Of a stretch of DNA of 64,000 nt, positions 10,253 to 25,460 are shown one piece after another (the stretch's first letter is position 1; every line of letters starts with the position of its first letter). Both the position numbers and the translations under genes were made by a program. The notes beneath the pieces were generated by a model. It was not told where the DNA came from. It made no database searches and saw only the letters and a list, made by a program, of their open reading frames with translations. This DNA is from an uncultured Acidobacteriota bacterium (GTDB lineage Bacteria > Acidobacteriota > Terriglobia > Acidiferrales > UBA7541), in assembly GCA_963774805.1 (NCBI GenBank), contig CAVZGK010000001.1:58610-122609 (forward strand), given 5' to 3'.

Positions 10253-10783
10253 ATGACCCCTCAATCAGCAACCGCACTACAGCCCGTAAAAACGTCCGCC
10301 GTTTCAAAAGCAACGGACGCCCAGCAGACATTTGACCGGATGCAACAGATCTATGACTCCATCGCGCGAAGAGCGTTCGAGATCTTTGAAGGCAACGGGC
10401 GCCCGATCGGACACGACTTGTCCGACTGGCTCCAGGCCGAATCCGAGATGCTCCGCCCGCTGCACCTGGCAATCGCGGAATCGGACGACGCATTGACCGT
10501 GACCGCCGAAGTTCCCGGCTTTTCGGCGAGCGAACTCGATGTTCATGTAGACGGAAATCGCCTCATTATTTCCGGCCAGCACATTTTCGACAACGAAACT
10601 ACCAGCGGCAGGACCGTGTACTCTGAACGATCCGCGACAGAGATTTTCCGCGCCCTGGATCTTCCGACCGACATCGATGGTTCGAAGGTCAGCGCCCTCG
10701 TCAAGGACGGCCTCCTTAAGGTCGAGCTCCCGAAGGCCTTGCATGGCAAGAGCGCGAAAGTGGAAGCTAACCCCGCCAACTGA
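10253..10783 (+). CDS. Hsp20/alpha-crystallin family small heat-shock protein
   Basis: AAGGAG RBS before the ATG at 10253. The alpha-crystallin core is LTVTAEVPGFSASELDVHVDGNRLIISGQH...GLLKVELPK. Confidence 0.85.
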   Translation: MTPQSATALQPVKTSAVSKATDAQQTFDRMQQIYDSIARRAFEIFEGNGRPIGHDLSDWLQAESEMLRPLHLAIAESDDALTVTAEVPGFSASELDVHVDGNRLIISGQHIFDNETTSGRTVYSERSATEIFRALDLPTDIDGSKVSALVKDGLLKVELPKALHGKSAKVEANPAN

Positions 10784-11101: not shown

Positions 11102-11794
11102 ATGGCCGCGTTCGCGTTCGCGGCGTGGCTCCTTGCTACAAGCGTTTCCGTTCGTGGAGGATCAGCGGGCGTCTCCGCGGATCGTCCGCGGGATTTCTCC
11201 GGCGTGTGGATGGAGCGGCAGAACGCCATCACTTTCAGTTCCGCCGAGCCGCCTTTCCTTCCGTGGGCCGCGCAGCGCTTCAAAAACGTCAAATCCGGCT
11301 ACGGCCCGCGCGCTACTCCTGATTCCGAAGACCCGATTTTGAATTGCCTGCCTCCGGGAGTGCCCCGCATCTTGCTGATTCCTTTTCCGATGGAGATCGT
11401 TCAGACGCCGGGCGAATTGGTGATGCTGTTTGAGTACGATCACAACGTGCGCCACATTTATCTGAATCGCCATGAACACCCCCAGGAATTGGATCTGACC
11501 TGGATGGGCGATTCCATCGGCCGGTGGGAAGACGACACTCTGGTGATCGACACGACAGGATTAAATGACCGGACCTGGCTGGATCAAGTCGGGCATCCTC
11601 ATTCGGATGCCCTGCACGTGATCGAGCGAATTCGAAAAGTTGACCGCGACACGCTGCAGGATGATGTGACGATCGACGATCCGAAGGCCTACGCAAAAAC
11701 CTGGAGCGGCCAGCAAATTTTCAAGCGCAGGCCCACCTGGCACCTGCTGGAATATGTTTGCGCAGATGAACGCTCGGGCTCACGGAAAAAATAG
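11102..11794 (+). CDS. Secreted uncharacterised protein ('X family', paralog of 23299..24102)
   Basis: Signal peptide MAAFAFAAWLLATSVSV. It shares about 50% identity by eye with 23299..24102. Shared blocks: DPIL(N/K)C.PPGVPR, (M/L)(L/I)FEYDH.VR.I, TWMGDSIG(R/K)W(E/D)(D/G)DTLV(I/V)DT, GHPHS..LHVIERIR, DDPKAY(A/T)K(T/P)W, VC.D. Confidence 0.7.
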   Translation: MAAFAFAAWLLATSVSVRGGSAGVSADRPRDFSGVWMERQNAITFSSAEPPFLPWAAQRFKNVKSGYGPRATPDSEDPILNCLPPGVPRILLIPFPMEIVQTPGELVMLFEYDHNVRHIYLNRHEHPQELDLTWMGDSIGRWEDDTLVIDTTGLNDRTWLDQVGHPHSDALHVIERIRKVDRDTLQDDVTIDDPKAYAKTWSGQQIFKRRPTWHLLEYVCADERSGSRKK

Positions 11795-11854
11795 TTCGCG
11801 CGCGGCGCGGTCGTTCGCCAAACCGATCAGCGCACGACGCGCGGCAGAAAACAC

Positions 11855-13615
11855 ATGAAGTGGCATTCCAGATTCGGTGCTGAGCTGATCGCGATTATCG
11901 CGATGATCGTGGTCGTGTTTATACTCGCGGTCTATCAATACCGCTGGACCGGCGAGATCAGCCGAACCGAGCAGGCGCGCCTGAAAAATTCCCTGGCAAC
12001 CAGCGTGCGCAATTTCGATCAGGAATTTTCCTACGACTTTCAGCAGCTGTGCGCCAGCTTGGAACTTGACCCGGAAACGAAACCTTCGGATCTTGAGGCG
12101 CACGCGTCGCGCCAACTCGCCGGCTGGCAGCGCACCGGCGCCCACGCCCCACTCGTCTCAGGCCTTTGGATTTGGAAAGGCTCGCCGACCCCGGAGGCAA
12201 TCGAATCGTTGAGCAGGAACGATCCCGAATTTCGCCCCGCATTGTGGCCATCTGAACTGGAATCGCTGCGTGGACCGATCCATCATCAACTGCAGCAGGC
12301 AGAACTCGTCAGCAGCGATCGTGAAGCCCTCTACTACGCATGGACCTTCTACAGCGATGGGCCGGCACTCGTTCGTCCCATCTTCCGAATTGTGCCGGGG
12401 GAGCGTAGATCCGGCCAGGCGGTTTCGCCAATTGGAATGCTGATCGTAAAACTGAACAGCGAATATTTGGCGAGCCACTACCTTCCCGATCTTGTGGATC
12501 GGCAATTCGGCGCCGCCGGCCAGAGAAGCTTCGTGGTAGCCGTGCGAACTTCGCAGCCGCCGTACCGCACCGTCTATATTTCCGATACGAATTTTTCACT
12601 CGCCGCGGGTTCTTCCGACGCCACGGTCAACCTCTTCGATCTCGTCGGGGAAGAGTCCCGGCGCCGCGGCCATGCTCCACTGCAGTCCAGCGCTCCCGGA
12701 GAACAATGGCAATTGATCGCGCAGCATCCCTCGGGATCCCTCGAGGAGGCGGTGGCGTCATGGCGGCGCCGTAATCTGGCCATCAGTTTGGGCTTGCTGG
12801 TGGTGCTCGCCGCCAGCATGGCGCTGATCTTCACCAGCGCTCGCCGTTCGCGTGCGCTGGCGCGCATGCAGATGGAATTTGTAGCGGGCGTCTCCCACGA
12901 GCTTTGCACGCCGCTGGCTGTGATCAACACGGCGGCGGATAACCTGGCCGATGGCGTCGTGGAAAACGCGGTGCAGATGCAGGAATACGGCAGCTTGATT
13001 CGCGGGCAGGGACGCCGGCTCGAACGTCTGGTCGACGAAGTGCTTCTCTTTACAGCCGGAAGGTTCGGCCTTTCCGGCTACAGGCTGGAACGGGTGGAAG
13101 TGGCCGAAATTATCGCCCAGGGCCTGGCGACATCCGAATCCAACCTGCGCGAGGCAGGGTTCGAATGGACGAAATCGATTGAAGACAATTTGCCGCCGAT
13201 TGTGGCTGACGCTTCCGCGGTGATCACCTGCATCGAAAATGTTGTGAGCAACGCCATTAAGTATTCGAACTCGAACAAGTGGCTGGCCATTCGGGCGACC
13301 GCAGCTTCTTCGGAATCGAAAATGGAAGTCCGAATCAGTGTTGCAGACAAGGGAATCGGGATTGCTCCGGAAGACCTCCCGCACATTTTCGAACCGTTTT
13401 ACCGCGTTCCCTCGGTTCGCGATCACCAGATTCGCGGCGTTGGCCTGGGACTGTACCTTGTGAAACGCATGATGGAAGAAATGGGCGGCCGTGTGAGCGT
13501 CACCAGCGAGCTGGGCCGCGGCACGACTGTCGTGCTGCATTTTGTGGCTGCCGGGAACGCTGAACAGTCTTCAGCGGAACCGCTTCCCGAAGTCCAGGAT
13601 TCACGGAAAACATGA
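11855..13615 (+). CDS. Two-component sensor histidine kinase with a large periplasmic/extracytoplasmic sensor region
   Basis: 586 aa with two TM segments. H-box FVAGVSHELCTPLAV; HATPase motifs NAIKYS, DKGIGI, GVGLGLYLV. Confidence 0.9.
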   Translation: MKWHSRFGAELIAIIAMIVVVFILAVYQYRWTGEISRTEQARLKNSLATSVRNFDQEFSYDFQQLCASLELDPETKPSDLEAHASRQLAGWQRTGAHAPLVSGLWIWKGSPTPEAIESLSRNDPEFRPALWPSELESLRGPIHHQLQQAELVSSDREALYYAWTFYSDGPALVRPIFRIVPGERRSGQAVSPIGMLIVKLNSEYLASHYLPDLVDRQFGAAGQRSFVVAVRTSQPPYRTVYISDTNFSLAAGSSDATVNLFDLVGEESRRRGHAPLQSSAPGEQWQLIAQHPSGSLEEAVASWRRRNLAISLGLLVVLAASMALIFTSARRSRALARMQMEFVAGVSHELCTPLAVINTAADNLADGVVENAVQMQEYGSLIRGQGRRLERLVDEVLLFTAGRFGLSGYRLERVEVAEIIAQGLATSESNLREAGFEWTKSIEDNLPPIVADASAVITCIENVVSNAIKYSNSNKWLAIRATAASSESKMEVRISVADKGIGIAPEDLPHIFEPFYRVPSVRDHQIRGVGLGLYLVKRMMEEMGGRVSVTSELGRGTTVVLHFVAAGNAEQSSAEPLPEVQDSRKT

Positions 13616-14319
13616 GCGCAAAAATTCTGATCGTCGAAGACGAACCGGGCCTGGTGACCACGCTGCGCGACCGTTTGCGCAAGCAGGGCTACAGTGTGAG
13701 CGTGGCGCGCGACGGCGACACGGGGCTTGCGATGGCGTTGCAAGAGCCGATGGACCTGATTTTGCTGGACCTCATGCTGCCCGGGCAATCGGGCCTGGCG
13801 GTGTGCCAGAAACTGCGCAAGGCGGGATCGACCACGCCGATCCTGATGCTCACCGCGCGGCGGCAGACGAAGGACAAAGTCTCGGGATTAAAAGCCGGCG
13901 GCGACGATTATCTGACCAAGCCGTTTCAGATGCCGGAGCTGCTGGCCAGGGTCCAAGCGCTGTTGCGTCGCGCGGCGACTCCACCCGAGCCGCAGTCGGC
14001 GCGATACCGTTTTGGCGTGGTGGCGATCGATACGCGAAGCACGGAGGTCACGCGAGACGGCCGCGTGGTTCCGATGTCCGCCAAGGAATTCCAGTTGCTC
14101 CGCTATTTTGCGGAGCATCCGAATGTAACGCTCTCGCGCGAAGAATTGCTGCGCGAAGTGTGGGGCTACGGCGTGCATACGCCAAGCCGCACCGTCGACG
14201 TGCACGTGGCATGGCTCAGGCAGAAGCTCGAAGAAGACCTGAAAACCCCGCAGTTGATCGTTACCGTGGTTGGATTCGGTTACAAATTCGCAGCGGAAAG
14301 AAATTTTCTTCCCCAGTGA
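13612..14319 (+). CDS. OmpR/PhoB-family response regulator
   Basis: ATGA overlap with the kinase stop. Receiver motifs ILIVEDEP...DLILLDLMLPG...KAGGDDYLTKPF, and a winged-helix C-terminus (RTVDVHVAWLRQKLE...VVGFGYKF). Confidence 0.9.
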   Translation: MSAKILIVEDEPGLVTTLRDRLRKQGYSVSVARDGDTGLAMALQEPMDLILLDLMLPGQSGLAVCQKLRKAGSTTPILMLTARRQTKDKVSGLKAGGDDYLTKPFQMPELLARVQALLRRAATPPEPQSARYRFGVVAIDTRSTEVTRDGRVVPMSAKEFQLLRYFAEHPNVTLSREELLREVWGYGVHTPSRTVDVHVAWLRQKLEEDLKTPQLIVTVVGFGYKFAAERNFLPQ

Positions 14320-14477
14320 GTCTGAGCGCCCTCACCGGCCGCCGCCACAGTGATCCGCAGGTTTAACTCCGATTTAACGCCGCAATGCCCCTTCTTCGCC
14401 GGATAATAGGGCAGGTCCTTTCCAATCACAGGCAGTGCCGATTCGAATTGGCGGGCACGCACCCGCGGAGGCTAGAG

Positions 14478-14873
14478 ATGCGGTTCAATAATTTTTCTGC
14501 GATGGTGGCTGGGATCGTATTGTTCGGTGCGTCGGTTTACCCGGCATTCGCGCATCATGGCCAGGCCAGCTTTGACGAGACGAAGGTTGTCACCATCATG
14601 GGGACCGTCGATTCGTTTGAGTTCAACAATCCCCACGCCATGCTGGTGATCGCCGTCAAAGGCGAAAAGAACACCACGCAAAAATGGTTCGGAGAAGGCA
14701 CCAGCCCCAATATGCTGGTGCGCGAAGGCTGGGACCGCAAAACCGTGAAACCCGGCGATCCGATCACGGCCACCGGGCATCCGGCTCGCAATGGCTCGTT
14801 CTCCATGCGCATCGAGAAAGTCGTTTTGCCGAATGGCAGGGAACTGACGTTTGAAGGCCCCGGGGGAACATAG
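14478..14873 (+). CDS. Small secreted 'HHG' protein a (resembles DUF6152-type proteins)
   Basis: GGAGG RBS. Signal peptide ...VYPAFA then HHGQASFDETK...GTV..FEFNNPH...GW..KTVKPGD...PARNG. Paralogs at 15592 and 24125. I chose the start at 14478 rather than the ORF-track start at 14385. Confidence 0.75.
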   Translation: MRFNNFSAMVAGIVLFGASVYPAFAHHGQASFDETKVVTIMGTVDSFEFNNPHAMLVIAVKGEKNTTQKWFGEGTSPNMLVREGWDRKTVKPGDPITATGHPARNGSFSMRIEKVVLPNGRELTFEGPGGT

Positions 14874-14989
14874 CGGCAGGGAAGAGGCGCATTCATTGGA
14901 AAGTGATTCGTACGGATTTTCATTGGATCTGCGTTTTCGCACGGCAATTACTGCCGCAATTTTAACGAAGCGTCGAAAGGCTTGAGGAC

Positions 14990-15481
14990 ATGCATTTAAT
15001 CAGTGTGATTTGCCAGTGGCTGGAACAGACCGGAGTGGGCACTTCCATCCGGGAATCGTTGTGGCTGTTTCCGATCATTGAGACCGTGCACATTTTCGGC
15101 ATCATTCTCCTGGTGGGCGCAACATCCATCCTTGACCTGCGGCTGATGGGGCTCACGTTCCGCGACGAATCCGTTTCCAAACTCGCGGAGCGCTTCATTC
15201 CCTGGGCTCTCGTCGGGTTCATCATTCAAGTGGTTACGGGGTTTCTCCTGTTTTCGTCCGAGGCGACCAAGATGTACGTCAATCTCGGGTTCCAGGTCAA
15301 GATGGTGCTGATCGTCATCGCCGGGATGAACGCGCTCATCTTCCACGCTGTTGCGTATAAAAGCGTCGGGACATGGGAGAACGATCGAGTGGGACCGCTC
15401 TCGGCCCGCGCGGCAGGATTGATTTCCATCCTGTTGTGGTTCGGGATCGTTGCGGCGGGACGCTGGATTGCTTACGTCTGA
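14990..15481 (+). CDS. Four-TM integral membrane protein (resembles DUF6644-type proteins)
   Basis: 163 aa with four hydrophobic spans. N-terminus ...IRESLWLFPIIETVHIFGIILLVG. It is sandwiched between two HHG genes. Confidence 0.7.
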   Translation: MHLISVICQWLEQTGVGTSIRESLWLFPIIETVHIFGIILLVGATSILDLRLMGLTFRDESVSKLAERFIPWALVGFIIQVVTGFLLFSSEATKMYVNLGFQVKMVLIVIAGMNALIFHAVAYKSVGTWENDRVGPLSARAAGLISILLWFGIVAAGRWIAYV

Positions 15482-15591
15482 TCCCGCTGGTACGGAATTA
15501 CTTTGAGAATTTCCGCCGCTATTTGTGGCGCGGTGTGCGAGCGATCGCTGCGCCGCGGTGAAGCGACGCCTGACCGCTGCCGAGGTGTGAC

Positions 15592-15984
15592 ATGAACCGT
15601 CGGACTTTCCTTTCGCCAGTTGCCGCCGCGGTTTTTTTTCTGGCGGCCACATCGATTTCCGCGCACCACGGCAATACGAACTACGACATGGCCAAAACGA
15701 TCGTCCTTGTCGGAACGGTTACGGACTTCGAATGGGCCAATCCCCATTGCCTGGCGCACGTGGACGTTGCCGACGACGCGGGAGCCATCCGGCACTGGAC
15801 GCTGGAAATGAATTCCACGATTGCGATGTCTCGCCGCGGATGGAATAAGGACACGTTGAAACGCGGAGACCGAGTCACCGTGGAGACGCACCCCGCGCGC
15901 AATGGCGTCTCCATGGGCATTACTTCCGGTCCGGGATTCGCATTAAAGGTCGCGGTGAATGGCAAAGAGCTTCCTGGGCTTTAG
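15592..15984 (+). CDS. Small secreted 'HHG' protein b (DUF6152-like)
   Basis: GAGGTG RBS. Signal peptide ...ATSISA then HHGNTNYDMAK...GTV.DFEWANPH...GW.KDTLKRGD...PARNG. Confidence 0.75.
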   Translation: MNRRTFLSPVAAAVFFLAATSISAHHGNTNYDMAKTIVLVGTVTDFEWANPHCLAHVDVADDAGAIRHWTLEMNSTIAMSRRGWNKDTLKRGDRVTVETHPARNGVSMGITSGPGFALKVAVNGKELPGL

Positions 15985-16091
15985 AGAAGCGCGAGCGAGT
16001 TTGCGGCGAACCCGGGGATGCGAGCTCCAGGCAATCCCAAACAGAATGGAAACGAATGCCCGTCCATCGAACTGAATCGGAGATTGTCTGA

Positions 16092-19000
16092 ATGATTCGG
16101 AATCTGTTTGCGGCGCGGCGCAGCTGGCATTTATTGATGCTGGTAATGTTATCCGGAATTTGCGTTCCGTGCGCGCTCTTGGCGGACACGGTCGGAAGCA
16201 TTTCCGGGACGCTGACCGATCAGTCCGGCGCCGTGATTCTGGACGCGACGGTCACTGCGCTCAATCTGGATACGGCTGTTCAACAGACCACGAAAACGAA
16301 CGGCAACGGCTTTTACAATTTCACGACGCTTCCCGTGGGCCGTTACGAAATTGAAGTGATTCGCGAGGGCTTCGAGCCCTACAAGCGCACCGGCCTGGTG
16401 GTGGACGTAAATTCGCAGCTGCGCGCGGACGTGACGCTCTCGATGGGCGGCCAGTCGGAAGAAGTGATCGTGTCCGAGGCCGGAGTGCACATCGAGACGC
16501 AGAGCACGCAAGTGGGAGAAGTGGTCACGGGAGACGTCATGACCGGCGTGGCGCTCAACGGCCGCAGCTTCACGGACTTGATGTCTCTGCAGCCGGGCAT
16601 CGTGCCGGTATCCACGCAAACGCCGGACTCCGTCGTGATGGCCGGGGCCTCGGTGGCGATCGCTCCGTCTGGCGGACTAAATCCCGGAAACCAGTCGATC
16701 TCCGGGCAGCGCGAGGATGCCAACGGATTTCTGGTCAACGGCGGCGACGTCAAGGAATTGATGAACGGCGGCACGCTGATCGTGCCGAATCTTGACTCCA
16801 TCGCCGAGTTCCGCATCCTCACCAATAATTTCGACGCCGAATACGGAAATTATTCCGGCGGAATCGTGAACGTGGTCACCAAATCCGGCACCAACCAACT
16901 GCACGGCAGCGCGTTCGATTTTTTGCGCAACACGGCGCTGGACGCCAAGAATTTTTTCGATCCCGTGGTCGGCACGTACCGGCAGAATCAGTTCGGAGCC
17001 ACCGTCGGCGCCCCCATTCGAAAGAATAAATTATTTCTCTTCGCCGACTACCAGGGAACACGCACCACGCAGGGTATTTCCACGGGGCAGATTCCGGTTC
17101 CGACGCTGGCCGACCGCTCCGGGAACTTGCTGGGCGATGCGGAACTGTTCGAAACGGGCTGCAACGGCGGGCCGTGCACAGTGTCCTCGTGCAATGTGGT
17201 CAGCACCTGCCTCGCGACGCAGCTGTCCAACAGCCTTTCGAACGCGGTTGGGCAGGCAGTCACCGTCTCACCGGGCGAGCCGTATTACACGGCGGGCTGC
17301 ACGACGTACGCGCAGTGCGTTTTTCCGAATGGCGTATTTCCGATGGACGCGTGGTCGGCTCCGGCGCAGCACCTGCTGCAATATATTCCCTCGCCGAATG
17401 TTGGCAGCGCAGTGTTTTCCAGCGGCTCGGAGTCCGAACGCGTGCGCGATGACAAAGGCAGCATTCGCGTCGACTTCGCCGCGACGCGCTGGGGAGATCT
17501 CTCCGCCTACTATTTTTACGACAAGTTTTTCGTCAGCAACCCGTATCCCACCGGGCAGGGCGGAGCGTCTGTTCCCGGATTCGGCGGATTAAATTTGGGA
17601 ACGGCGCAGCTTCTCAATCTCGGGGACACCCGAACTTTCGGCTCCTCCCGCGTGAATGAATTCCATCTAAGCTTCATGCGCACCTACAACAACGTCGGCC
17701 AGCCCGCCGGCGGAGTGGGGCCGAGCCTGGCGTCGCAGGGATTTGTTACCGGCGTGGGTACGCAGGGCATCGTTCCGCTCGCTCCGTCGATTGAGGGAAT
17801 TGAAAATCTGGCGTTCAATTCCTTCGTCATGGGCACTCCCATCACCAATCTTACGCAGGTGAATGACACTTACACGGCCGGCGACGATTTTTCCATCGTT
17901 CTGGGCAAGCACACGCTGAAAGCCGGAATCCAGCTGGTTGTCGATCAGGTGAACGTGCATCCCAATCCCGAATTCAATGGCGGCTTTTCATTTAACGGCG
18001 GGCAGACCGGCTCGGATTTTGTGGATTTTCTGGTGGGGGCGCCGAATCTTTACAATCAGGCCGATTCTCAGGCTTTTTTCCCGCGCCACAAATATGCGGG
18101 CGTCTTCGCACAGGATAGCTGGCAGATCCGTTCGAACCTGACGCTGAACTATGGACTGCGCTGGGAAGTGATGCGCTACTGGTCTGAAAAATACAACCAG
18201 ATTCCCACGTTTCTTCCGGGGCAGCAGTCGCAAGTGTATCCGACGGCGCCGCCGAGCCTGGTCTATCCCACGGACCGCGGAGTGCCGGCCACGCTCGTCC
18301 CGCAAATGAATCGATTTTCGCCGCGATTGGGCGTGGCCTATTCTCCGCGGGTTTCCATCGGCTGGCTCGGCAAGATCGTGGGAGGCCCGGGGAAAACCAG
18401 CATTCGCGCGGGCTACGGAATTTATTATTCGGTGATTCAGGGCAATACCATTGCGTTCGATGAGCCGCAGCCGCCCTATGGTCTCAGCTACACCAGTCCA
18501 CTCGCGCCTCTTTTCGCCACGCCGTTTACGGCGGCCAGCGGTGAGACGGCCATCAACCCCTTTCCACTGGTGTTTCCGCCGCTGAATGCGACCATAACGC
18601 ATCCAAATCCGACCATTGATTACTCGCAATTTCCTTCCATCGCGGGAATGACCGCGCCGCCTCCCTCAAACACATATCCCTACACGGAAAATTACTTTCT
18701 TTCCGTTCAGCGGGAACTGAATGTGAATACCGTATTGAATCTGAGCTACGTCGGTTCGCAGGCTCATCATCTGCTGGTGGTCTACTCGGCCAATCCCGGA
18801 AATCCCGCGCTGTGCCTGTCTTTGCCGGGTTGCGGGCCGGGCGGAGAAAATTCTTCGTACGTGAATTCCTCAGGCCAGACCATTGCCTGTACGCGGCAGG
18901 GACTCGGCTGCGCCTTCGGAAATGATGATTACGAGGGCAGCATCGGCAATTCCAATTTCAATTCGTTTCAGGCCACGTTGCAGCACAGCACCAAGAGCCT

Positions 19001-19667
19001 GGACCTGATGATCGCCTACACCTACAGCAAATCGATCGACCAGGCTTCCAGCCTTGCGGACGTCGTTAATCCATTCAACTTTGCGCAGACGCGCGCACTC
19101 TCGGCATTCGATCTGAAGCACAATCTGGTCGTAACCTACGAATACACGCTGCCGCTCGAGCGTTTTCTGCACCGTTCCAACGGCTGGACGCAGGGCTGGA
19201 TCATCTCGGGCATCACCCGGGCCAGCAGCGGGCTGCCTGTAACTCTCTCCGTCTCCGGCGACAACTCCCTGCAGGGCAGCAATCCAAACGGCGTGAATGG
19301 ACGCTACTTCGATCTGCCCGACGTAGCCGCCGGTCCCCTGAATCTGAATTCCCATCCAGGAAGCGGACAGCCGTACTTTGACACTTCGCTGTTCTCGGTC
19401 AATGCGCTGGGCACGCCGGGCAATGCGTCGCGGCGTTATTTCTATGGTCCCGGTTCGTTGAATACGGATCTGGCCCTGTTGAAAAGCGTGGCCATCGCGG
19501 AGACCAAGTCGCTGCAGTTCCGCCTGGAAACTTTCAACGTCTTCAATCATCCGCAGTTCTTCGGCCCGCAAGCCGTGAACGGCAATATCTCCAGCCCGCT
19601 ATTCGGACAGATCGTGAAGGCCGCGCCGCCCCGCCTGATGCAGCTCGCCGTGAAATTCGCATTTTGA
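16092..19667 (+). CDS. TonB-dependent outer-membrane receptor with an N-terminal carboxypeptidase-regulatory-like domain
   Basis: 1191 aa with a signal peptide. N-terminus GSISGTLTDQSGAVILDATVTALN...GFYNFTTLPVGRYEI, then a plug region, a long beta-barrel and a C-terminal ...LAVKFAF aromatic terminus. Confidence 0.9.
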   Translation: MIRNLFAARRSWHLLMLVMLSGICVPCALLADTVGSISGTLTDQSGAVILDATVTALNLDTAVQQTTKTNGNGFYNFTTLPVGRYEIEVIREGFEPYKRTGLVVDVNSQLRADVTLSMGGQSEEVIVSEAGVHIETQSTQVGEVVTGDVMTGVALNGRSFTDLMSLQPGIVPVSTQTPDSVVMAGASVAIAPSGGLNPGNQSISGQREDANGFLVNGGDVKELMNGGTLIVPNLDSIAEFRILTNNFDAEYGNYSGGIVNVVTKSGTNQLHGSAFDFLRNTALDAKNFFDPVVGTYRQNQFGATVGAPIRKNKLFLFADYQGTRTTQGISTGQIPVPTLADRSGNLLGDAELFETGCNGGPCTVSSCNVVSTCLATQLSNSLSNAVGQAVTVSPGEPYYTAGCTTYAQCVFPNGVFPMDAWSAPAQHLLQYIPSPNVGSAVFSSGSESERVRDDKGSIRVDFAATRWGDLSAYYFYDKFFVSNPYPTGQGGASVPGFGGLNLGTAQLLNLGDTRTFGSSRVNEFHLSFMRTYNNVGQPAGGVGPSLASQGFVTGVGTQGIVPLAPSIEGIENLAFNSFVMGTPITNLTQVNDTYTAGDDFSIVLGKHTLKAGIQLVVDQVNVHPNPEFNGGFSFNGGQTGSDFVDFLVGAPNLYNQADSQAFFPRHKYAGVFAQDSWQIRSNLTLNYGLRWEVMRYWSEKYNQIPTFLPGQQSQVYPTAPPSLVYPTDRGVPATLVPQMNRFSPRLGVAYSPRVSIGWLGKIVGGPGKTSIRAGYGIYYSVIQGNTIAFDEPQPPYGLSYTSPLAPLFATPFTAASGETAINPFPLVFPPLNATITHPNPTIDYSQFPSIAGMTAPPPSNTYPYTENYFLSVQRELNVNTVLNLSYVGSQAHHLLVVYSANPGNPALCLSLPGCGPGGENSSYVNSSGQTIACTRQGLGCAFGNDDYEGSIGNSNFNSFQATLQHSTKSLDLMIAYTYSKSIDQASSLADVVNPFNFAQTRALSAFDLKHNLVVTYEYTLPLERFLHRSNGWTQGWIISGITRASSGLPVTLSVSGDNSLQGSNPNGVNGRYFDLPDVAAGPLNLNSHPGSGQPYFDTSLFSVNALGTPGNASRRYFYGPGSLNTDLALLKSVAIAETKSLQFRLETFNVFNHPQFFGPQAVNGNISSPLFGQIVKAAPPRLMQLAVKFAF

Positions 19668-19677
19668 AAATCTGTGG

Positions 19678-19701
19678 CGCCGGCTTCAGCCGGCGAATTT
19701 T
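19678..19701 (+). terminator. Rho-independent terminator of the TonB-dependent receptor gene
   Basis: CGCCGGC-TTCA-GCCGGCG stem-loop followed by AATTTT. Confidence 0.6.
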
Positions 19702-19792
19702 GCTATTCGACGGAAACAAAACACACAAAAAAAATCCGGACCGAGCGCTACATCGGCTCGATCCGAATTCAGTAATTGGCGGCTGGCTTGGG

Positions 19793-21115
19793 TTAGTCTG
19801 CAGCCGGTTTCGGCGCCGGCGGCGAGGGCTTCATGAACTTCGCATCCTCCACCGCAGCGTTAGCGTCCACCTGGGCCCACTTGTAGACGCGATTGCCTTC
19901 CGCGCTGACGACCCGGTTAGTGAATGCCACCTTGACGCCGCTGACGTCGCGGTAGTCCTCGTAAAAGGTTTCCTCAGGGAAGGAACCGATCACGCTCTGC
20001 ATCGTGGTGTAGGAGCGCAGGAGCAGGCCGGTTTGCGCATCGAAGTTGAGGCGGTCGAGAACAAGGAAGCCGTCCTTGCGCGTGCCAACCACACGATAGG
20101 TATCGCGGTCGCCGATTTTTTCCATGGCGTCGACCTGCACGTTGGTGTGATCTTCACGAAATTCGAGGCCTGGAAACTTTTCTCCGAGTTCAACCAGCAG
20201 GCGCAATTCATCCCCCGTATCTTCGCGGATCGGAGTGTTGTGCCAACCGATGGTTCCGTCATAACCCATGGACACCGTGGGCCGCCCCGGAAATGTCACG
20301 GAGAGGACGCCTTTCATGCCTTTGACGTAGTGCTCGGCAGGCACCGTGCCCATTGCCGGAGGCGGCGCGGGCGTTCCCGGAGGTCCGGGCGGCGGAGGCA
20401 CGAGCATGTCAGCGGTCCCTTTCAAGGACAGCGAAGTTACTTTTTCCAGCGCGGCCTTTCCGCCGAGCGCACGTTCATATTCGCTGAAGACGCTGGTTAC
20501 CGTAGGCAGCGGGGCGGGAGCGGCGGCTTCCGGTTTCGGCGCGGGCGCAGGGCCGGACATTACGGTTGCGGGCGCCTTGCCTGGAGACATCGCGGCATCC
20601 AAATTGGTGTAATTCTTCAGAGCCAGCGCGGGAAAAATTTCCAGGGCCGATTTTTCCTTCGGCATTTTATCGCCGGCCAGCAGCAGTGTGGATTCCGCTT
20701 TGGCTACGCCGCGATGGCAGGTGAAGCAGGTCACTTCGCGCTTGCCGTCAAACACCGTTTGATTGAGCGCCATGGTCATTTGAATCATGCTGCGCGCCAC
20801 GTGTTTCTCGCGTTTGTCATCGGAATCGAAATGGCCGATCACGTGGCAGTAGCCGCAGCCCACGCCCAGGGCCGTGGTGATGTATTCCATCGCCGGATGA
20901 ACCTGATCGGCGGGAATGCCCTTGAGCGCTTCAATCTTTTTGTAGAACTGGTCGGCGGTTTTGCCCTTCATGTCAGCCGCGAGTGGGGCGGGGTTGGGAG
21001 GCGCGGCCGGGGCTTGCGCGCGCAGGCCGGGCGCACCCAGGCCGAACGCGGCGATCGATAGCGCAAGAATTCCGAGACCTTTGGAAATTGTGCGGACGGA
21101 TAATTTCTTATGCAT
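19793..21115 (-). CDS. Secreted di-haem c-type cytochrome (photosynthetic-reaction-centre cytochrome-c-subunit-like N-domain) fused to a roughly 250-aa C-terminal domain of unknown function
   Basis: Signal peptide, then two CxxCH motifs (CGYCH, CFTCH) within ...ITTALGVGCGYCHV...REVTCFTCHRG. A Pro/Ala linker follows, then a beta-rich C-domain. Confidence 0.8.
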   Translation of the reverse strand: MHKKLSVRTISKGLGILALSIAAFGLGAPGLRAQAPAAPPNPAPLAADMKGKTADQFYKKIEALKGIPADQVHPAMEYITTALGVGCGYCHVIGHFDSDDKREKHVARSMIQMTMALNQTVFDGKREVTCFTCHRGVAKAESTLLLAGDKMPKEKSALEIFPALALKNYTNLDAAMSPGKAPATVMSGPAPAPKPEAAAPAPLPTVTSVFSEYERALGGKAALEKVTSLSLKGTADMLVPPPPGPPGTPAPPPAMGTVPAEHYVKGMKGVLSVTFPGRPTVSMGYDGTIGWHNTPIREDTGDELRLLVELGEKFPGLEFREDHTNVQVDAMEKIGDRDTYRVVGTRKDGFLVLDRLNFDAQTGLLLRSYTTMQSVIGSFPEETFYEDYRDVSGVKVAFTNRVVSAEGNRVYKWAQVDANAAVEDAKFMKPSPPAPKPAAD

Positions 21116-21363
21116 ACCTTTTGATTAACCTCCCGCGGATTTTAGTGCCGGACGCAAAAATTCGCGCACGCACCGGACGAGCGTCTTGTTAGTGGGGCTA
21201 ATCCTAAGTCATACCGGGGAGCAAATGCAATGCGGCGACCGCGGTTCCGGCCCCGCGCTGCGAGCTCGCGCTAGTGACTTTGGGGACCGTTTGGGTCTAC
21301 TCTGTCATCGCGATTTATGGTTTTGCAACATAGATGGATGTTTTCCCCTCCGGAGGGACGCCA

Positions 21364-23088
21364 ATGAAAATTCGCAGGGAATGTTTTGCAGGCCTCCAGC
21401 AATTCGGGATGCGATTTGCACTGGTGCTGTGCCTCAGTGTGCCGCTCGCAGTGATCCCGGCGCGTGCCGAGTGCAACGTGCCGGCACTGAACGCGCTGAA
21501 CATCCCGAATCTTACGGTCGTCTCCTCGACGATCGTCTCCGCCGCCGCGCCCAATCCCGCCTATTGCGATGTGAAGGGCACGGTCACCACCACCAGCGAA
21601 GGCGCCGAGGCAGGCAGCGCGAATTTTGAAGTCATCCTGCCGCAAAACTGGAATGGAAAATTCATATTTCATGGCGTCGGCGGGCTGGCCGGAACACTCA
21701 CATCTTCGGCGAATCCCGCCGATCAGGCGCAGTTCCTGGTGAAAGGCTACGCTACGGCCATCACGGACACGGGGCATCTGGTCGCCAATCCGACGTGGGA
21801 ATACACCGCGCCGCGCGCTCCAGACACGCCGAAAATCGTCGATTATTTTTATCGCGCCGTGCATGACGTGACGATTGCGTCCAAACTCCTCGTCAAGGCC
21901 TACTACCACACCGAGACGATTCGCCGTTCCTACTTTGACGGCTGTTCGAACGGCGGGAAAATGGGGCTGATCGAAGCCACCCGCTTTCCCGCCGATTACG
22001 ACGGCATCATTGCCGGTTCGCCGTGGCTCGATCCGGTGGGCACGTCGCTGTGGAGCGTAAAAAACATCAAAGCCCTGCTGGATGCTTACATTCCCGCGGC
22101 AAAATTCGATGCCGTCGCCGCGGCGATCCTAAAACAGTGCGACAAGGCTGACGGCGTGGCCGACGGCCTGATTCAAAATCCCGCGAAGTGCGCGTTCGAT
22201 CCCAGCGCGCTGGTTCCCGAAACGCTCACGCAGGCGCAGGCCAATGCCTTGAAAACCATCATGAGCCCGGTGCGCGATGAACAAGGCAAGCTCATTTACC
22301 CTGGCGCGTCCGTCGGAAATCTGGGCCAGGTGAACATCACCGTCCGCGGCGCGACGAATTACCTCGACGCTCCGCCGTCCGATCCTTCCTCTGCCAAGCC
22401 GTGGGGCGACTCCACTGTTCCGGCTAACTGGTCGCTGGCGCAAAACATTCTGATGAAAATCGGCTATGCCGATGCCGGCGCGGACATGAACAATTCGCTG
22501 GAATCCAATGGCGTGGTGAAAACGGAGGCGCTGAACCAGGTCTATTCCCGTCTTGCGGATGACATCCCTGACGATCCTGCAGCCTTCGGAGACTTTTTTT
22601 CCAAAGGCGGAAAGTTGCTGATTTACCACGGCTATGAGGATCTGATTATTTCTCCGTATAGCAGCATCTGGTTCTACGAGGATCTGGCCCAGGAAAATGG
22701 CGGCTATGCCAAAGTGCAGCAGCATGCCCGCCTTTTCATGGTTCCCGGCATGCAGCACTGCGTTTTGGGCTCGGGACCGAACTCGTTTGACACACTCACT
22801 GCGCTGGAGAACTGGACTGAGCGGGGCATCCCGCCCGATGCGATTCCCGCGACCCATTCCACAAACGACGTCGTCGACCGCACCATGCCGCTGTGCAAAT
22901 TTCCCGAAGCCGCGCATTACAAGGGTACGGGCGATCCGAAGAGCGCGGGCAGTTGGTCTTGCCTGGAAACGGACAAATCACTTTTGGCGGTCGGCCCGAA
23001 TGGGATTCAGGCCGGAGCGAACGCCACGCCGCCCGCGCGGATCAGCGCGCCGGCAAAGTTGATTTCCAAAAACGGGAGCGTGTTTTAG
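21364..23088 (+). CDS. Tannase/feruloyl esterase family alpha/beta hydrolase (secreted)
   Basis: GGAGGG RBS before the ATG at 21364, and a signal peptide. Family motif YFDGCSNGGKMG (G-C-S-x-G-G). The late Cys residues are consistent with the family's disulfide. Confidence 0.8.
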   Translation: MKIRRECFAGLQQFGMRFALVLCLSVPLAVIPARAECNVPALNALNIPNLTVVSSTIVSAAAPNPAYCDVKGTVTTTSEGAEAGSANFEVILPQNWNGKFIFHGVGGLAGTLTSSANPADQAQFLVKGYATAITDTGHLVANPTWEYTAPRAPDTPKIVDYFYRAVHDVTIASKLLVKAYYHTETIRRSYFDGCSNGGKMGLIEATRFPADYDGIIAGSPWLDPVGTSLWSVKNIKALLDAYIPAAKFDAVAAAILKQCDKADGVADGLIQNPAKCAFDPSALVPETLTQAQANALKTIMSPVRDEQGKLIYPGASVGNLGQVNITVRGATNYLDAPPSDPSSAKPWGDSTVPANWSLAQNILMKIGYADAGADMNNSLESNGVVKTEALNQVYSRLADDIPDDPAAFGDFFSKGGKLLIYHGYEDLIISPYSSIWFYEDLAQENGGYAKVQQHARLFMVPGMQHCVLGSGPNSFDTLTALENWTERGIPPDAIPATHSTNDVVDRTMPLCKFPEAAHYKGTGDPKSAGSWSCLETDKSLLAVGPNGIQAGANATPPARISAPAKLISKNGSVF

Positions 23089-23091
23089 TAG

Positions 23092-23115
23092 AACAGGCTT
23101 CAGCCTGTTGGTTTT
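23092..23115 (+). terminator. Rho-independent terminator of the tannase-family gene
   Basis: AACAGGC-TTCA-GCCTGTT followed by GGTTTT. Confidence 0.65.
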
Positions 23116-23177
23116 GATCGTGTCCGGCGCGAACGAATGCAGGCAAACTAAACAGGCCGCGGAAAACCCATAACGCT

Positions 23178-23260
23178 GTCATCCTGAGCGAAGCGAAGGG
23201 TCTCTCTTTTTTTGCTCGCACTTAGATCGAAGAGAGATTCTTCGCTTCGCTCAGAATGAC
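23178..23260. repeat. Palindromic MITE/REP-like element, copy 2 (outer arms extend to about 23159..23281)
   Basis: GTCATCCTGAGCGAAGCGAAGGGTCTCTC...GAGAGATTCTTCGCTTCGCTCAGAATGAC. Outer IR: GCGGAAAAC / GTTTTCCGC. Confidence 0.9.
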
Positions 23261-23298
23261 AAGATGGGACACGTTTTCCGCAACTCGTGAAGCCGGTC

Positions 23299-24102
23299 CT
23301 ACTGGGTCGGCGCTTTGCCTTCCGATTTCTGCTGCATGTCTCCGTAGGTTTCGTTGTCTTCGCAAACCATCTCGCCGAGAGTCCAGTCCGGCTTCAAATC
23401 GTAAATGGCGTGGCCGCCCCAGGGTTTGGTGTAAGCCTTGGGATCTTCGATCGTGGTGTCGATGGTCAGCGTATCGTGATTGACGCGGCGGATGCGTTCG
23501 ATCACGTGCAGATCTTCGGAATGGGGATGCCCGTCGTTATCCAGCCAGGTTTTATCGTTGAACCCAATCGTGTCCACCACCAGCGTGTCGCCATCCCACT
23601 TGCCGATGGAGTCGCCCATCCACGTGGGATTCGGATCGCTGGGATGCGGGCGCCCGTCGGTAAAAATATTGCGCACAAAATGGTCGTATTCAAAAATCAT
23701 CAGCACCCGCCCGGGCAGGTTGGCGATTTCAATCGGCTCGGCGCGCACGAGATAGACGCGGGGCACGCCCGGCGGCGCGCATTTCAGGATGGGATCATTC
23801 GATTCCGAAAGCGATACCGAGCGAGGACCGATCTCGGGTTTATTGGCGTTGAATTTTTCTTCGGCCCAGGGAGTCATCGATGGCTTCTCGCTGGTAATTG
23901 CGAATGCCAATTCGTAGATGGTGTACTTTCTCGCTTTGTCCGGGGCGCGCCGCGAACGCCTCCAGACTCCGGAGAGATCCGCCGGGGGAGGGGGCGTCTG
24001 CGCTTTCAGGGCGGATATTTTTGTCGTCTGGGCGGGTGCGGAGGGCGCCGATGCCAGCATCGCCGCGCCAGCGAGCATCACTGCCAGTACTCGAAAAAAC
24101 AT
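23299..24102 (-). CDS. Secreted uncharacterised protein ('X family', paralog of 11102..11794)
   Basis: GGGAGG RBS before the ATG at 24102. Signal peptide MFFRVLAVMLAGAAMLASAPSAPA. The conserved blocks are those listed for 11102..11794. Confidence 0.7.
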   Translation of the reverse strand: MFFRVLAVMLAGAAMLASAPSAPAQTTKISALKAQTPPPPADLSGVWRRSRRAPDKARKYTIYELAFAITSEKPSMTPWAEEKFNANKPEIGPRSVSLSESNDPILKCAPPGVPRVYLVRAEPIEIANLPGRVLMIFEYDHFVRNIFTDGRPHPSDPNPTWMGDSIGKWDGDTLVVDTIGFNDKTWLDNDGHPHSEDLHVIERIRRVNHDTLTIDTTIEDPKAYTKPWGGHAIYDLKPDWTLGEMVCEDNETYGDMQQKSEGKAPTQ

Positions 24103-24124
24103 TTCGCAGCCTCCCGGGAGACGT

Positions 24125-24523
24125 TTATTCCGCATAGTCTTCGCTGCGATCGATTACCGATTCCTTGCCGTTGGGAAAAACCACTTTGCGCAGGCGCATG
24201 ATGTGTGAGCCGCTCTTGGCCGCGTTGCCGACAAACGTAAGCTGGTCGCCCGGCTTGAACATGCTCTTGCTCCATCCGAGGCGGGACATGGCGGTCAGGC
24301 TGGGCGCTTCACCCGTCCATTTGTCGGCCTTGCCGTCGGTGCCAGTCACGTCAAAAATGATTTCCGTATGGGGATTCATGAAATGAAATTCGGTGACGGT
24401 TCCTTTGAACGTAGTCAGTTTGGTCGAGTCATAGACCGAAGCGCCGTGGTGCGCCAGGGCCGGGGCTGAGAGCGACACCACACAAACCACCAGCGCCACG
24501 ATGGCCAGAAAATTTATTTTCAA
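24125..24523 (-). CDS. Small secreted 'HHG' protein c (DUF6152-like)
   Basis: TTG start at 24523 preceded by GAGGTG. This gives (M)KINFLAIVALVVCVVSLSAPALA then HHGASVYDSTK...GTV.EFHFMNPH...GW.KSMFKPGD. The ORF-track start at 24685 would add about 50 non-signal residues. The stop lies 22 nt before the X-family start. Confidence 0.65.
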   Translation of the reverse strand: MKINFLAIVALVVCVVSLSAPALAHHGASVYDSTKLTTFKGTVTEFHFMNPHTEIIFDVTGTDGKADKWTGEAPSLTAMSRLGWSKSMFKPGDQLTFVGNAAKSGSHIMRLRKVVFPNGKESVIDRSEDYAE

Positions 24524-24644
24524 GGAACACCTCGCGATTGGCGCGACTATCCCATTAGCGAGCAGTGCTGTCAATGCAAAACGCGCGGCGGCATTTTGCA
24601 AAGTTCTTTCGGGATTTTGTTGCTCCATCGCGTGTGGGGCGGAT

Positions 24645-25346
24645 TTATTTGGAGGAGTTGTCCGCAGCCGGTGCTTCCGGCGCATCGGCCGGAGTTGGTC
24701 CGACGCGCTCCACGGCCACGTGCTGAATGTGCACAGGAGTTACGGGTGTGTCTCCCGGATCGCGCGGCACCTGCGCGATGGCTTTCACCACATCCACGTT
24801 TTCGCACTGGCCCCAGATCGTATATTTTCCGTTGAAGGACGGAAAGGCCGACTCGGTGATGAAAAAGTGCGTGTCATTCGTGTCCGGTCCGCTGTTGGCC
24901 ATTGCCAACCGGCCCGGCGAATCGAATTTTAGCGAAGGCGCAATTTCACTCTTGTAGGGAAAACCCGGCCCTTCCGGGTGCCCCACGCCGGTGCCGAGCA
25001 AGTCTCCGCCTTGAATCATCACGCCTGGAATCACACGGTCGAAAACCAGGCCGTCAAAAAATTTCTTGCGCTCCGTCTGCTTGGTTTCGGGATGAACGTA
25101 GGAAATTCTTCCGATGGCCAATCCCACCATCATGCGCACGGTCACCGGAGCTTCGGTTTCAAACAGCTTGCAGGAAATGTTTCCTTTGTCAGTTTCGAGC
25201 GTCCAGTAGAGCCCCGGCTTGCGCTTGTCGGCGGGCGTCGCGCGAAGGCCTGCCGGCCAGAGCATCGGGGACAGGATTATCGCTGCGATGAGGAGTACGA
25301 CAGAAGTTTTCTGGGACGGTTTACTTCGGATACCGATTGGATTCAT
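24645..25346 (-). CDS. Cyclophilin-type peptidyl-prolyl cis-trans isomerase (secreted)
   Basis: FDRVIPGVMIQGGD, THFFIT and the WGQ..G motif. An N-terminal hydrophobic signal follows the ATG at 25346. Confidence 0.85.
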   Translation of the reverse strand: MNPIGIRSKPSQKTSVVLLIAAIILSPMLWPAGLRATPADKRKPGLYWTLETDKGNISCKLFETEAPVTVRMMVGLAIGRISYVHPETKQTERKKFFDGLVFDRVIPGVMIQGGDLLGTGVGHPEGPGFPYKSEIAPSLKFDSPGRLAMANSGPDTNDTHFFITESAFPSFNGKYTIWGQCENVDVVKAIAQVPRDPGDTPVTPVHIQHVAVERVGPTPADAPEAPAADNSSK

Positions 25347-25460
25347 TTGCGGGTTTCCTCTACGCTCTCGGCGCGTTCCTTGCGGCAAGCTGAAGCGCGC
25401 CGCATGGAGTTCCGTAGCAATCACGGAGCATCGCGGGCGCAGCGCGCGATTGAAATCCTG

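Follow-up and report, generated by a model that had tools for sequence, protein, structure and literature searches.

What does an outer-membrane receptor locus do when the exported proteins around the receptor belong to families without an assigned function? This question is raised by 13 kb (positions 11102 to 24523) of a 64,000-nucleotide stretch of DNA from an uncultured Acidobacteriota bacterium of the Acidiferrales (UBA7541; contig CAVZGK010000001.1, positions 58,610 to 122,609), which is referred to here as the window. A TonB-dependent uptake locus under a two-component system is of a known kind, and it is the accessory module that is new: three families of unknown function, DUF6152, DUF6644 and an unnamed family that we call X, form one conserved extracytoplasmic module. 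Our best reading is that the locus is one elaborate copy of this widespread module, coupled to an importer and to a dedicated two-component system. The module may serve the capture of a metal (of the copper or nickel type, or an iron chelate) and its redox hand-off outside the cytoplasm, a function that we propose tentatively, as quite possible but short of probable.

All eleven genes listed in the initial annotation were confirmed in place by open reading frame listing, translation, and Pfam and NCBIfam scans. Together with a candidate operator, they are:

11102-11794, plus strand: X1, exported protein of about 230 amino acids with a signal peptide, X family
11855-13615, plus strand: sensor histidine kinase (HisKA and HATPase_c)
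13612-14319, plus strand: response regulator of the OmpR/PhoB family (Response_reg and Trans_reg_C)
14362-14378, plus strand: candidate operator TTTAAC-N5-TTTAAC, a direct repeat with an 11-bp period
14478-14873, plus strand: DUF6152a (PF19649, 102.7 bits, cutoff 27)
14990-15481, plus strand: DUF6644, inner-membrane protein of 163 amino acids (PF20349, 47.5 bits, cutoff 27)
15592-15984, plus strand: DUF6152b, directly upstream of the receptor (PF19649, 100.2 bits, cutoff 27)
16092-19667, plus strand: TonB-dependent-receptor-like protein of 1191 amino acids (PF25183, PF13620, PF00593)
19793-21115, minus strand: exported di-haem c-type cytochrome (CytoC_RC) with an unclassified C-terminal domain
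21364-23088, plus strand: exported hydrolase of the tannase/feruloyl esterase family (PF07519, 317 bits, cutoff 29.8)
23299-24102, minus strand: X2, exported protein of 267 amino acids, X family, directly after DUF6152c
24125-24523, minus strand: DUF6152c, paired with X2 (PF19649, 80.4 bits, cutoff 27)

The reading frame of X1 opens at 11012 and its signal peptide fits the methionine at 11102. Apart from the regulator, all products of the locus have a signal peptide or transmembrane segments, and therefore the whole locus acts outside the cytoplasm. X1 and X2 are 45% identical (E 1e-65), while the three DUF6152 proteins share 36-44% identity (E 1e-16 to 1e-30; tblastn within the window), and the paralogy of both sets of copies is well beyond chance. 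Further copies of either family were not found by tblastn in the 64 kb. Three multi-copy families had been proposed at first, but there are just two, X and DUF6152, because DUF6644 is present as a single copy in the window; in other loci it is often found in tandem. The small proteins initially described as 'HHG' proteins and as DUF6152-like are full DUF6152 members (80-103 bits). That the families lack an assigned function was borne out, as Pfam has DUF names only for DUF6152 and DUF6644, X matches nothing, and no characterised protein was matched by any of the three in sequence and profile searches. Literature searches for DUF6152, DUF6644, PF19649 and PF20349 found no papers that mention them.

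Conservation of the Module

The co-location of X, DUF6152 and DUF6644 is real and spans at least three phyla. Close relatives, whose proteins are 75-83% identical, keep the whole arrangement. A scan anchored on DUF6152 took one genome per species and gave 48 loci, mostly from Acidobacteriota with a few Steroidobacteraceae and other Gammaproteobacteria. Counting the next same-strand gene after each of 59 distinct DUF6152 genes gave X 34 times, a receptor 7 times, DUF6644 4 times and a further DUF6152 twice, and within 10 kb of DUF6152 X was encountered in 43 of the 48 loci, a receptor in 21 and DUF6644 in 8. Anchoring on DUF6644 in metagenome contigs yielded 80 loci at 36-54% identity to the query. 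Among those that covered at least 4 kb (n = 43), DUF6152 was present in 30 loci, a tandem DUF6644 in 22, X in 15 and a receptor within 6 kb in 7, and the order X-DUF6152-DUF6644-DUF6644 recurred as an operon.

The carriers of the module include Acidobacteriota, Alphaproteobacteria (cultured Sphingomonadales) and Betaproteobacteria (Caballeronia). Croceibacterium atlanticum 26DY36 (WYH_RS16150-16165) has the order DUF6152-DUF6152-X-TonB receptor. In Novosphingobium humi a DUF6152-X pair is accompanied by a divergent DUF6644-DUF6644 pair, followed by a small protein with a C-terminal CxxCH, and Sphingobium TomTYG65 combines X-DUF6152-X-DUF6152 with two DUF6644 genes and a receptor alongside. In Caballeronia grimmiae there is just a DUF6152-DUF6644 pair, with 2 nt between the genes. 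The module is further present on contigs that were binned as Gammaproteobacteria and Verrucomicrobiia; three loci from bins assigned to Saccharimonadales or Verrucomicrobiia (L015, L027, L033) may be mis-binned acidobacterial contigs and were not counted as separate phyla. The presence of the module in cultured Sphingomonadales and Caballeronia makes its function directly testable.

The repeated co-location noted in the initial annotation thus extends beyond close relatives to Acidobacteriota in general, cultured Sphingomonadales and a Caballeronia, and the neighbourhood survey that it called for shows synteny across phyla from both anchors. In addition, a gene fusion exists (P0257) in which a signal peptide and an HHG-type DUF6152 are joined to X. 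X also occurs doubled within one protein (X-X) and joined to a metallo-beta-lactamase domain. The view that the locus is built around the TonB receptor did not hold, given the receptor frequencies in both scans. TonB receptors are abundant in Acidobacteriota, and a receptor within 10 kb in 21 of 48 loci is therefore unremarkable by itself. The conserved core is X, DUF6152 and DUF6644, with DUF6152 as its hub, and the receptor, two-component system, cytochrome and tannase are optional partners of this core.

Several other partners recur. In some close relatives a PepSY_TM gene lies between the regulator and DUF6152a (L058, 7067-8623; L060, 108-1664). A cytochrome c gene comes after the DUF6644 pair in four loci as well as in N. 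humi (the order DUF6644-DUF6644-cytochrome c is seen in L071, L081, L110 and N. humi), and cytochrome b561 appears in two loci. In L071 and L110, which are unrelated metagenome contigs, the DUF6644 pair, cytochrome c, a peptidyl-prolyl isomerase (PPIase) and a HupE/UreJ-2 permease (predicted cleavage site AQA|HTKSETH) form a single tight operon. A HupE/UreJ-2 permease with a predicted mature N-terminal histidine (His1) is also encoded 6 kb from the locus in the window, and likewise in L001 and L002. Pyrroloquinoline quinone (PQQ)-dependent dehydrogenases adjoin DUF6152/X in four loci, including L050 (11545-13494); whether they are of the lanthanide-dependent type would matter if the module handled rare-earth metals.

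The Three Families

DUF6152 carries the feature that speaks most directly to function. Cleavage is predicted directly before a His-His-Gly sequence in all three copies (AFA|HHG in DUF6152a, ISA|HHG in DUF6152b and ALA|HHG in DUF6152c). Across 85 full-length copies from 50 loci, a His-His-...-His triad was present in all 85, with the first two histidines right after the A-x-A site from which the mature His1 position was predicted. The His-His pair is usually followed by Gly or Ser, and the third invariant histidine lies within an Asn-Pro-His motif. Other invariant residues are Asp32, Trp69, Glu72, Arg81, Trp84 and Gly92-Asp93. The sole internal DUF6152 copy, in the fusion P0321, lacks the His-His pair and the third histidine as well (NPY instead of NPH); this joint loss suggests that the three histidines act together. 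Because the mature N-terminus is predicted to be always His-His with a third invariant histidine, the family points to an N-terminal-histidine metal site. The AlphaFold2 model of DUF6152c (predicted local distance difference test score, pLDDT, 84.5) is a small barrel of the oligonucleotide/oligosaccharide-binding (OB) type, and Foldseek against the PDB returned OB folds only, with weak E values of about 1e-3. In this model the histidine of the Asn-Pro-His motif is placed in the loop between strands 1 and 2, with Glu72 and Trp69 on strand 3, which is the region of the usual binding face of OB folds.

Family X is much larger than its obscurity suggests. A profile search of 1.84 billion cluster representatives gave 14,979 clusters at 50% identity with E <= 1e-3 and 8,352 with E <= 1e-10, so that a family of some 15,000 clusters has neither a Pfam model nor a name. 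X2 alone has more than 6,200 homologues, all of them unnamed, and X proteins are called 'hypothetical' or 'uncharacterized' throughout NCBI and UniRef. No Pfam or NCBIfam match was obtained even at E <= 10, nor was a PDB relative found by single-sequence or profile search. The X2 model (AlphaFold2, pLDDT 74.7) has an N-terminal helical extension and a beta-barrel of about nine strands. Foldseek of this model against the PDB gave only calycin matches (retinol- and fatty-acid-binding proteins), which are weak (best E 2.3e-3; template modelling score 0.55 on the target and 0.32 on X, at a model pLDDT of 74.7). Invariant residues comprise His141, His153, His194, several Asp/Glu, five Trp and the pair Cys108/Cys247, which probably forms a disulfide.

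Both DUF6152 and X maintain position-specific orthogroups. The DUF6152b orthogroup keeps the same position in L006, L009 and L015. X1 forms an orthogroup of its own that is always upstream of the kinase and regulator genes; it is 75% identical to the copy in L058 and 60-64% to that in L008, but its identity to DUF6152-paired X copies does not exceed 50%.

DUF6644 has four hydrophobic segments in its hydropathy profile. Among 11 diverse members His34 (in the first transmembrane segment), R51, G54, G84, F101, K104 and W150 are invariant. A large protein search seeded with DUF6644 returned close relatives only (68-97% identity) and thus added little diversity; for the pattern scan a three-sequence alignment served as seed, since two broader alignments were too divergent to seed it. 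Neither DUF6644 nor DUF6152 has a PDB relative by sequence or profile search. A relationship of DUF6644 to CopD was considered and, within the sensitivity of the searches, rejected: Pfam CopD (PF05425) gave no match at E <= 10.

Candidate Operator and Transcription Units

About 100 nt before the start of DUF6152a there is an exact direct repeat, TTTAAC-N5-TTTAAC. No other strong site exists in the 64 kb (28.8 bits, with the runner-up at 12.2). Fetched loci were searched for the motif with up to two mismatches, and it was found upstream of the DUF6152/DUF6644/receptor operon in eight relatives (L001, L008, L012, L016, L021, L023, L058 and L060), mostly as two direct repeats inverted relative to each other. 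In L058 and L060 it is also present upstream of PepSY_TM. In a position weight matrix scan of about 1.1 Mb, sites of such strength occurred almost solely at such intergenic positions, although these scores are partly circular because the matrix was built from those same sites. The PmrA box likewise consists of two hexamers 5 bp apart with a TTAA core (PMC3973317), and the candidate operator has the same architecture. Given the conserved box upstream of DUF6152a, the regulator probably controls the operon from 14478 to 19667 (DUF6152a-DUF6644-DUF6152b-receptor). This operon ends with a hairpin and T-run at 19678-19695, directly after the stop codon of the receptor gene.

The box is absent upstream of X1, the cytochrome, the tannase and DUF6152c-X2, and there is only one site of at least 13 bits in the 64 kb. 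Footprinting across 11-13 relatives showed that the cytochrome, the tannase and DUF6152c-X2 each have their own conserved -35/-10 promoter of the sigma-70 type; that of DUF6152c (TTGACA-17-TGnGATAGT, 24546-24574) is common to 12 relatives. The tannase gene is followed by a terminator hairpin at 23092-23109. In the cytochrome-tannase spacer and upstream of DUF6152c the footprints contained ordinary -35/-10 blocks and no shared operator, with one exception: an inverted repeat TCGCG-N5-CGCGA (24532-24546, minus strand) in the DUF6152c leader, between the -10 element and the ribosome-binding site. Slightly altered, it is conserved in 12 relatives and may serve as an operator for a repressor or form a hairpin in the leader.

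The 13 kb are therefore at least four transcription units. The initial annotation had placed the locus under a two-component system. This is supported for the DUF6152a-DUF6644-DUF6152b-receptor operon by its box, but not for the cytochrome, the tannase and DUF6152c-X2, which have their own promoters and no box, and therefore the 13 kb are not shown to be one regulon. Transcriptional independence, which had been named as a point that would count against a common pathway, is thus seen for the tannase, the cytochrome and DUF6152c-X2 and not for the receptor operon.

Receptor, Sensor, Cytochrome and Tannase

The receptor contains OMP_b-brl_4 (PF25183, 591 bits), an N-terminal CarboxypepD_reg domain (PF13620, 68 bits) and a C-terminal TonB_dep_Rec_b-barrel (PF00593, 30.1 bits with a cutoff of 27). 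A Plug domain (PF07715) was not matched even at E <= 10; plug-like motifs can be recognised by eye at residues ~150-262 (LNGRSF..L..L.PG and AEYG...GG.VNVVTKSGTN), and residues 233-268 match PqqU faintly. Sequence and profile searches of the PDB gave no significant relative of the receptor. In L001 and L002 a TonB_C gene is located three to five genes from the locus, between cupins and an NHL propeller.

The kinase has transmembrane segments at residues 8-26 and 308-326, which enclose an unclassified periplasmic domain of about 280 residues. Its stop codon is overlapped by the regulator start by 4 nt and its gene is separated from X1 by 60 nt. No NCBIfam equivalog reached its cutoff for either the kinase or the regulator.

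The cytochrome (CytoC_RC, 66 bits; NF033196, 70.2 bits with a cutoff of 70) has two haem motifs of the CxxCH type, CGYCH and CFTCH. Its N-terminus resembles a reaction-centre cytochrome, and PDB matches cover residues 40-139 alone. Neither Pfam nor the PDB gave a match for the C-terminal domain of about 240 residues (19793-20500), which all close relatives keep along with the tannase. The tannase has the motifs GCSNGG at residue 193 and HC at residue 465 (Cys-Ser ... His-Cys), and among proteins of solved structure it is nearest to MHETase (E 1e-51) and feruloyl esterase B.

A Possible Role in Metal Capture and Hand-Off

How could these components work together? In the function that we tentatively propose, the receptor would bring a chelated metal across the outer membrane. 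His1, His2 and the Asn-Pro-His histidine of DUF6152 would bind it on the OB-fold face, with Cu(II) or Ni(II) as the best guess and Fe as a further possibility. DUF6644, with its invariant transmembrane histidine, and the c-type cytochrome would provide a redox or transfer step at the inner membrane. X would bind the organic chelator or dock with DUF6152, and the X1 subtype beside the kinase would act as a periplasmic co-sensor. The phosphorylated regulator would activate the DUF6152a-DUF6644-DUF6152b-receptor operon through the conserved box. The tannase and the di-haem cytochrome, although separately transcribed, may free metal from phenolic-ester chelators, in a manner comparable to PfeE.

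The N-terminal histidine is central to this proposal. The one established rationale for a strictly conserved His1 in a secreted protein is metal chelation by the free amino group and the imidazole, as in CopC, YcnI, LPMOs and Ni-SOD. CopC, YcnI and LPMOs use His1 for copper. A 2025 study showed that a search for signal peptides followed directly by His uncovers new metalloproteins of any fold (PMC12537917). The same study describes N-terminal-His 'Ang' domains of HupE/UreJ-2 permeases that bind Cu2+ and Ni2+ (PMC12537917). PepSY_TM is the family of the ferric-siderophore reductase FoxB and of the copper-linked CrpH. The initial annotation had left the substrate between a metal and a plant-phenolic compound, and the evidence now leans to a metal because of the invariant, processed His-His and the recurrent c-type cytochrome, HupE/UreJ-2 and PepSY_TM partners.

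Several observations weigh against this proposal. Firstly, the metal cannot be named from the sequence and metal binding by DUF6152 is itself a prediction; the Foldseek matches of the DUF6152 and X models are weak (E ~1e-3), with the signal peptide still included in the DUF6152 model, and are taken as indicating fold class only. Secondly, the 64 kb contain neither a TonB gene nor a PepSY_TM gene, the HupE/UreJ-2 permease of the window belongs to a separate transcription unit 6 kb away, and the comparison of DUF6644 with five CopD sequences by hhalign gave a probability of 0.07%, with both profiles thin. Thirdly, no riboswitch that would name the substrate, including metal-responsive ones, was found. 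Among 149 neighbours of DUF6152/X in non-syntenic genomes, hydrolases and dehydrogenases were commonest (SGL 8, Vgb_lyase 4, NHL 3, metallo-beta-lactamase 3, PQQ 2-3 and Amidohydro_2 2), IclR regulators (2) recurred as well, and the 25 commonest neighbour families include no classic copper, nickel or iron gene. Lastly, the predicted calycin-like fold of X and its fusion to a metallo-beta-lactamase domain would fit an organic ligand. The enrichment of hydrolases in the neighbourhood keeps the uptake and processing of phenolic esters in play as a serious alternative.

Alternative Explanations

The strongest alternative is the uptake and periplasmic processing of an organic nutrient, which we regard as possible but rather unlikely. 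The receptor would then import a large plant ester, lactone or polyphenol, for example a hydrolysable tannin, which the tannase, beta-propeller lactonases and metallo-beta-lactamase-fold enzymes would cut. X would carry the hydrophobic or aromatic product, DUF6152 and DUF6644 would pass it to or across the inner membrane, and X1 would present the ligand to the kinase. A tannase with an intact CS...HC motif is indeed kept beside the receptor in all close relatives, but it lacks the regulator box and is under its own promoter. SGL/NHL/Vgb_lyase, metallo-beta-lactamase, carboxylesterase, Amidohydro_2, PQQ and IclR are the commonest neighbours of DUF6152/X, yet the neighbouring hydrolases vary from locus to locus and therefore imply no single substrate. 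Retinol- and fatty-acid-binding barrels as the best fold matches of X, the metallo-beta-lactamase fusion, the position of the Sphingobium module inside an organosulfur-ester utilisation cluster and the recurrence of major facilitator superfamily transporters near DUF6644 are all consistent with organic uptake. It leaves unexplained, however, the absolutely conserved His-His and third His of DUF6152 as well as the recurrent cytochrome c, cytochrome b561, PepSY_TM and HupE/UreJ-2 partners, the very features that favour metal hand-off.

Alternatively, the module could be a periplasmic redox enzyme, which seems unlikely to us. DUF6152 would be the subunit of a copper oxidase or oxygenase of the histidine-brace type, while X would hold the substrate; a DUF6644 dimer or tandem could ligate haem b, with one histidine per protomer, and together with the cytochrome c would supply electrons from the quinone pool, as MsrQ does for MsrP. 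Catalytic histidine-brace proteins likewise begin with His1 after the signal peptide, but the predicted OB fold is unlike that of any known histidine-brace enzyme. DUF6644 has one invariant transmembrane histidine and usually occurs in two copies, and triads of two DUF6644 genes and cytochrome c recur, although DUF6644 shows no haem-binding motif beyond this one histidine. The DUF6152-X fusion suggests that the pair acts as one unit, and a peroxiredoxin gene lies directly upstream of the Sphingobium module; a substrate is not indicated. Moreover, most of the N-terminal-His families tested so far proved to be only weak oxidases and were regarded as binders or carriers (PMC12537917). In its most specific form this explanation would make DUF6152-X-DUF6644 an unrecognised cross-phylum periplasmic copper enzyme, in which the His-His centre of the OB-fold DUF6152 would oxidise TonB-imported aromatics or phenolics held by X and electrons would pass through a haem-bearing DUF6644 dimer and cytochrome c; we consider this version distinctly unlikely. 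If DUF6152 is catalytic, a new fold would be added to the histidine-brace enzymes.

A role in envelope protection, in which the module sequesters or detoxifies excess metal, reactive quinones or peroxide and the two-component system senses the stress, appears very unlikely. The regulator box resembles that of PmrA, whose kinase senses Fe3+, Al3+ and acid, and the source lineage is from acidic soils and peat. Periplasmic binders of the CusF and CopC types serve also in resistance, and a peroxiredoxin and exported cupins are found nearby. Nevertheless, the neighbour survey linked no efflux pump, P-type ATPase or multicopper oxidase to the module, and its association with a TonB-dependent importer, and in other loci with a HupE/UreJ-2-family permease, speaks for uptake.

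Lastly, chance co-location of unrelated exported proteins, which like TonB receptors would be abundant in the genome, would fit the unremarkable receptor frequency around DUF6152 and the independent promoters of the cytochrome, the tannase and DUF6152c-X2, but it is hardly tenable for the locus and effectively refuted for the core module by direct same-strand adjacency of three families in at least three phyla from both anchoring directions, by gene fusions, by the shared operator box and by the position-specific DUF6152 and X orthogroups.

Other Features of the Window

On the same strand as DUF6152c and upstream of it, two exported or propeller-type proteins are encoded, followed further on by the permease mentioned above:

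24645-25424, minus strand: exported cyclophilin PPIase (Pfam)
25461-26537, minus strand: NHL/SGL-type beta-propeller (Pfam)
30883-32241, plus strand: HupE/UreJ-2 permease, predicted mature N-terminus His (AARLAA|HDIPND)

The cyclophilin and the propeller are also present in the relatives L001 and L002. The permease was identified by reading its sequence directly, and the Pfam assignment comes from precomputed hits of its L001 and L002 orthologues. Its predicted His1 N-terminus corresponds to a metal-catching domain of the 'Ang' type as described in PMC12537917. Two exported cupin proteins and an exported metallo-beta-lactamase-fold protein are encoded at 26553-27609 and 29583-30644 (both minus strand); they are kept beside the locus in L001 and L002, and their families are usually metal-dependent.

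Just upstream of X1 the window encodes a sigma-54 activator with PAS domains (7535-9844, minus strand) and a chaperone of the Hsp20 family (10169-10783, plus strand), neither of which showed a connection with the locus. At 2688-2774, 23178-23260, 46621-46642 and 61241-61327 the window contains an intergenic palindrome of about 85 nt whose arms read GTCATYCTGAGCGRAGCGAAGR. Seven such arms were found in the window and none in shuffled sequences. One copy lies between the tannase and X2, and another is present in the cytochrome-tannase spacer of L001. The repeat looks like a repetitive extragenic palindromic (REP) or miniature inverted-repeat transposable (MITE) element, and it is the cause of a spurious sub-threshold Rfam match to 'mir-515'.

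Comparison With Known Systems

The locus resembles several known systems in part. The calycin binders (FABP/CRBP) share with X an antiparallel beta-barrel, predicted in X, which also has three invariant histidines and several invariant acidic residues; ZinT/YodA is a bacterial binder with the calycin fold. However, X is twice as long, has an N-terminal helical extension and a probable Cys108-Cys247 disulfide, and the structural match is weak, with no sequence relation detected.

In Pseudomonas aeruginosa, the PfeS/PfeR-PfeA-PfeE system combines an OmpR-type two-component system with a TonB-dependent transporter and an esterase in the periplasm that releases iron from ferric enterobactin, whose chelator is a catecholate ester (PMC8001512). 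The gene arrangement is alike here, and the counterpart of PfeE would be the tannase, acting on galloyl-ester chelates. In contrast to the Pfe system, the esterase of our locus belongs to the tannase family (PF07519) and has its own promoter without the regulator box, the receptor is of the CarboxypepD_reg/OMP_b-brl_4 type and the kinase has a periplasmic domain of about 280 residues. DUF6152, X and DUF6644 are not part of the Pfe system.

FoxA/FoxB for iron and CrtA/CrpH for copper pair an outer-membrane importer with a haem-containing inner-membrane PepSY_TM protein that reduces the imported metal in the periplasm. L058 and L060 are similar in that they carry PepSY_TM under the same operator box as the receptor operon. 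The window lacks PepSY_TM, and DUF6644 is much smaller and unrelated in sequence, with its haem binding conjectural.

The N-terminal-His 'signal-strapped' metalloproteins (DUF4198, DUF6702 and the HupE/UreJ-2 Ang domain) have a conserved His1 and are described in PMC12537917 as periplasmic metal binders linked to permeases. DUF6152 has a fully conserved His1 after the predicted cleavage site, and HupE/UreJ-2 is encoded in one operon with DUF6644 in L071 and L110. Neither the section headings of that study nor its section consulted here name DUF6152 (PMC12537917), which differs in its predicted fold and in its His-His start, with metal binding as a prediction.

A further parallel is offered by CopC/CopD and by YcnI/YcnJ, the copper import system of Bacillus subtilis, in which an exported beta-protein binds metal with His1 and hands it to an adjacently encoded multi-transmembrane protein with a conserved histidine (10.1101/2021.06.11.448128, PMC12362106). 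The DUF6152 and DUF6644 genes, as read from their sequences, repeat this combination of a small exported beta-protein with a mature N-terminal histidine and a neighbouring multi-transmembrane protein. CopC and YcnI, however, are cupredoxin-like or have a DUF1775 sandwich, whereas DUF6152 has a predicted OB fold with His-His and the Asn-Pro-His histidine. DUF6644 differs from CopD in having four transmembrane segments, one invariant histidine and, in a comparison of two thin profiles, no similarity to CopD, and CopC/CopD have no counterpart of the third partner, X. If DUF6152 is a metal carrier, the module would thus be a new route for metal from the outer to the inner membrane, analogous but unrelated to CopC/CopD, and it would sit in dominant bacteria of acidic soils and peat, where polyphenols tie up metals.

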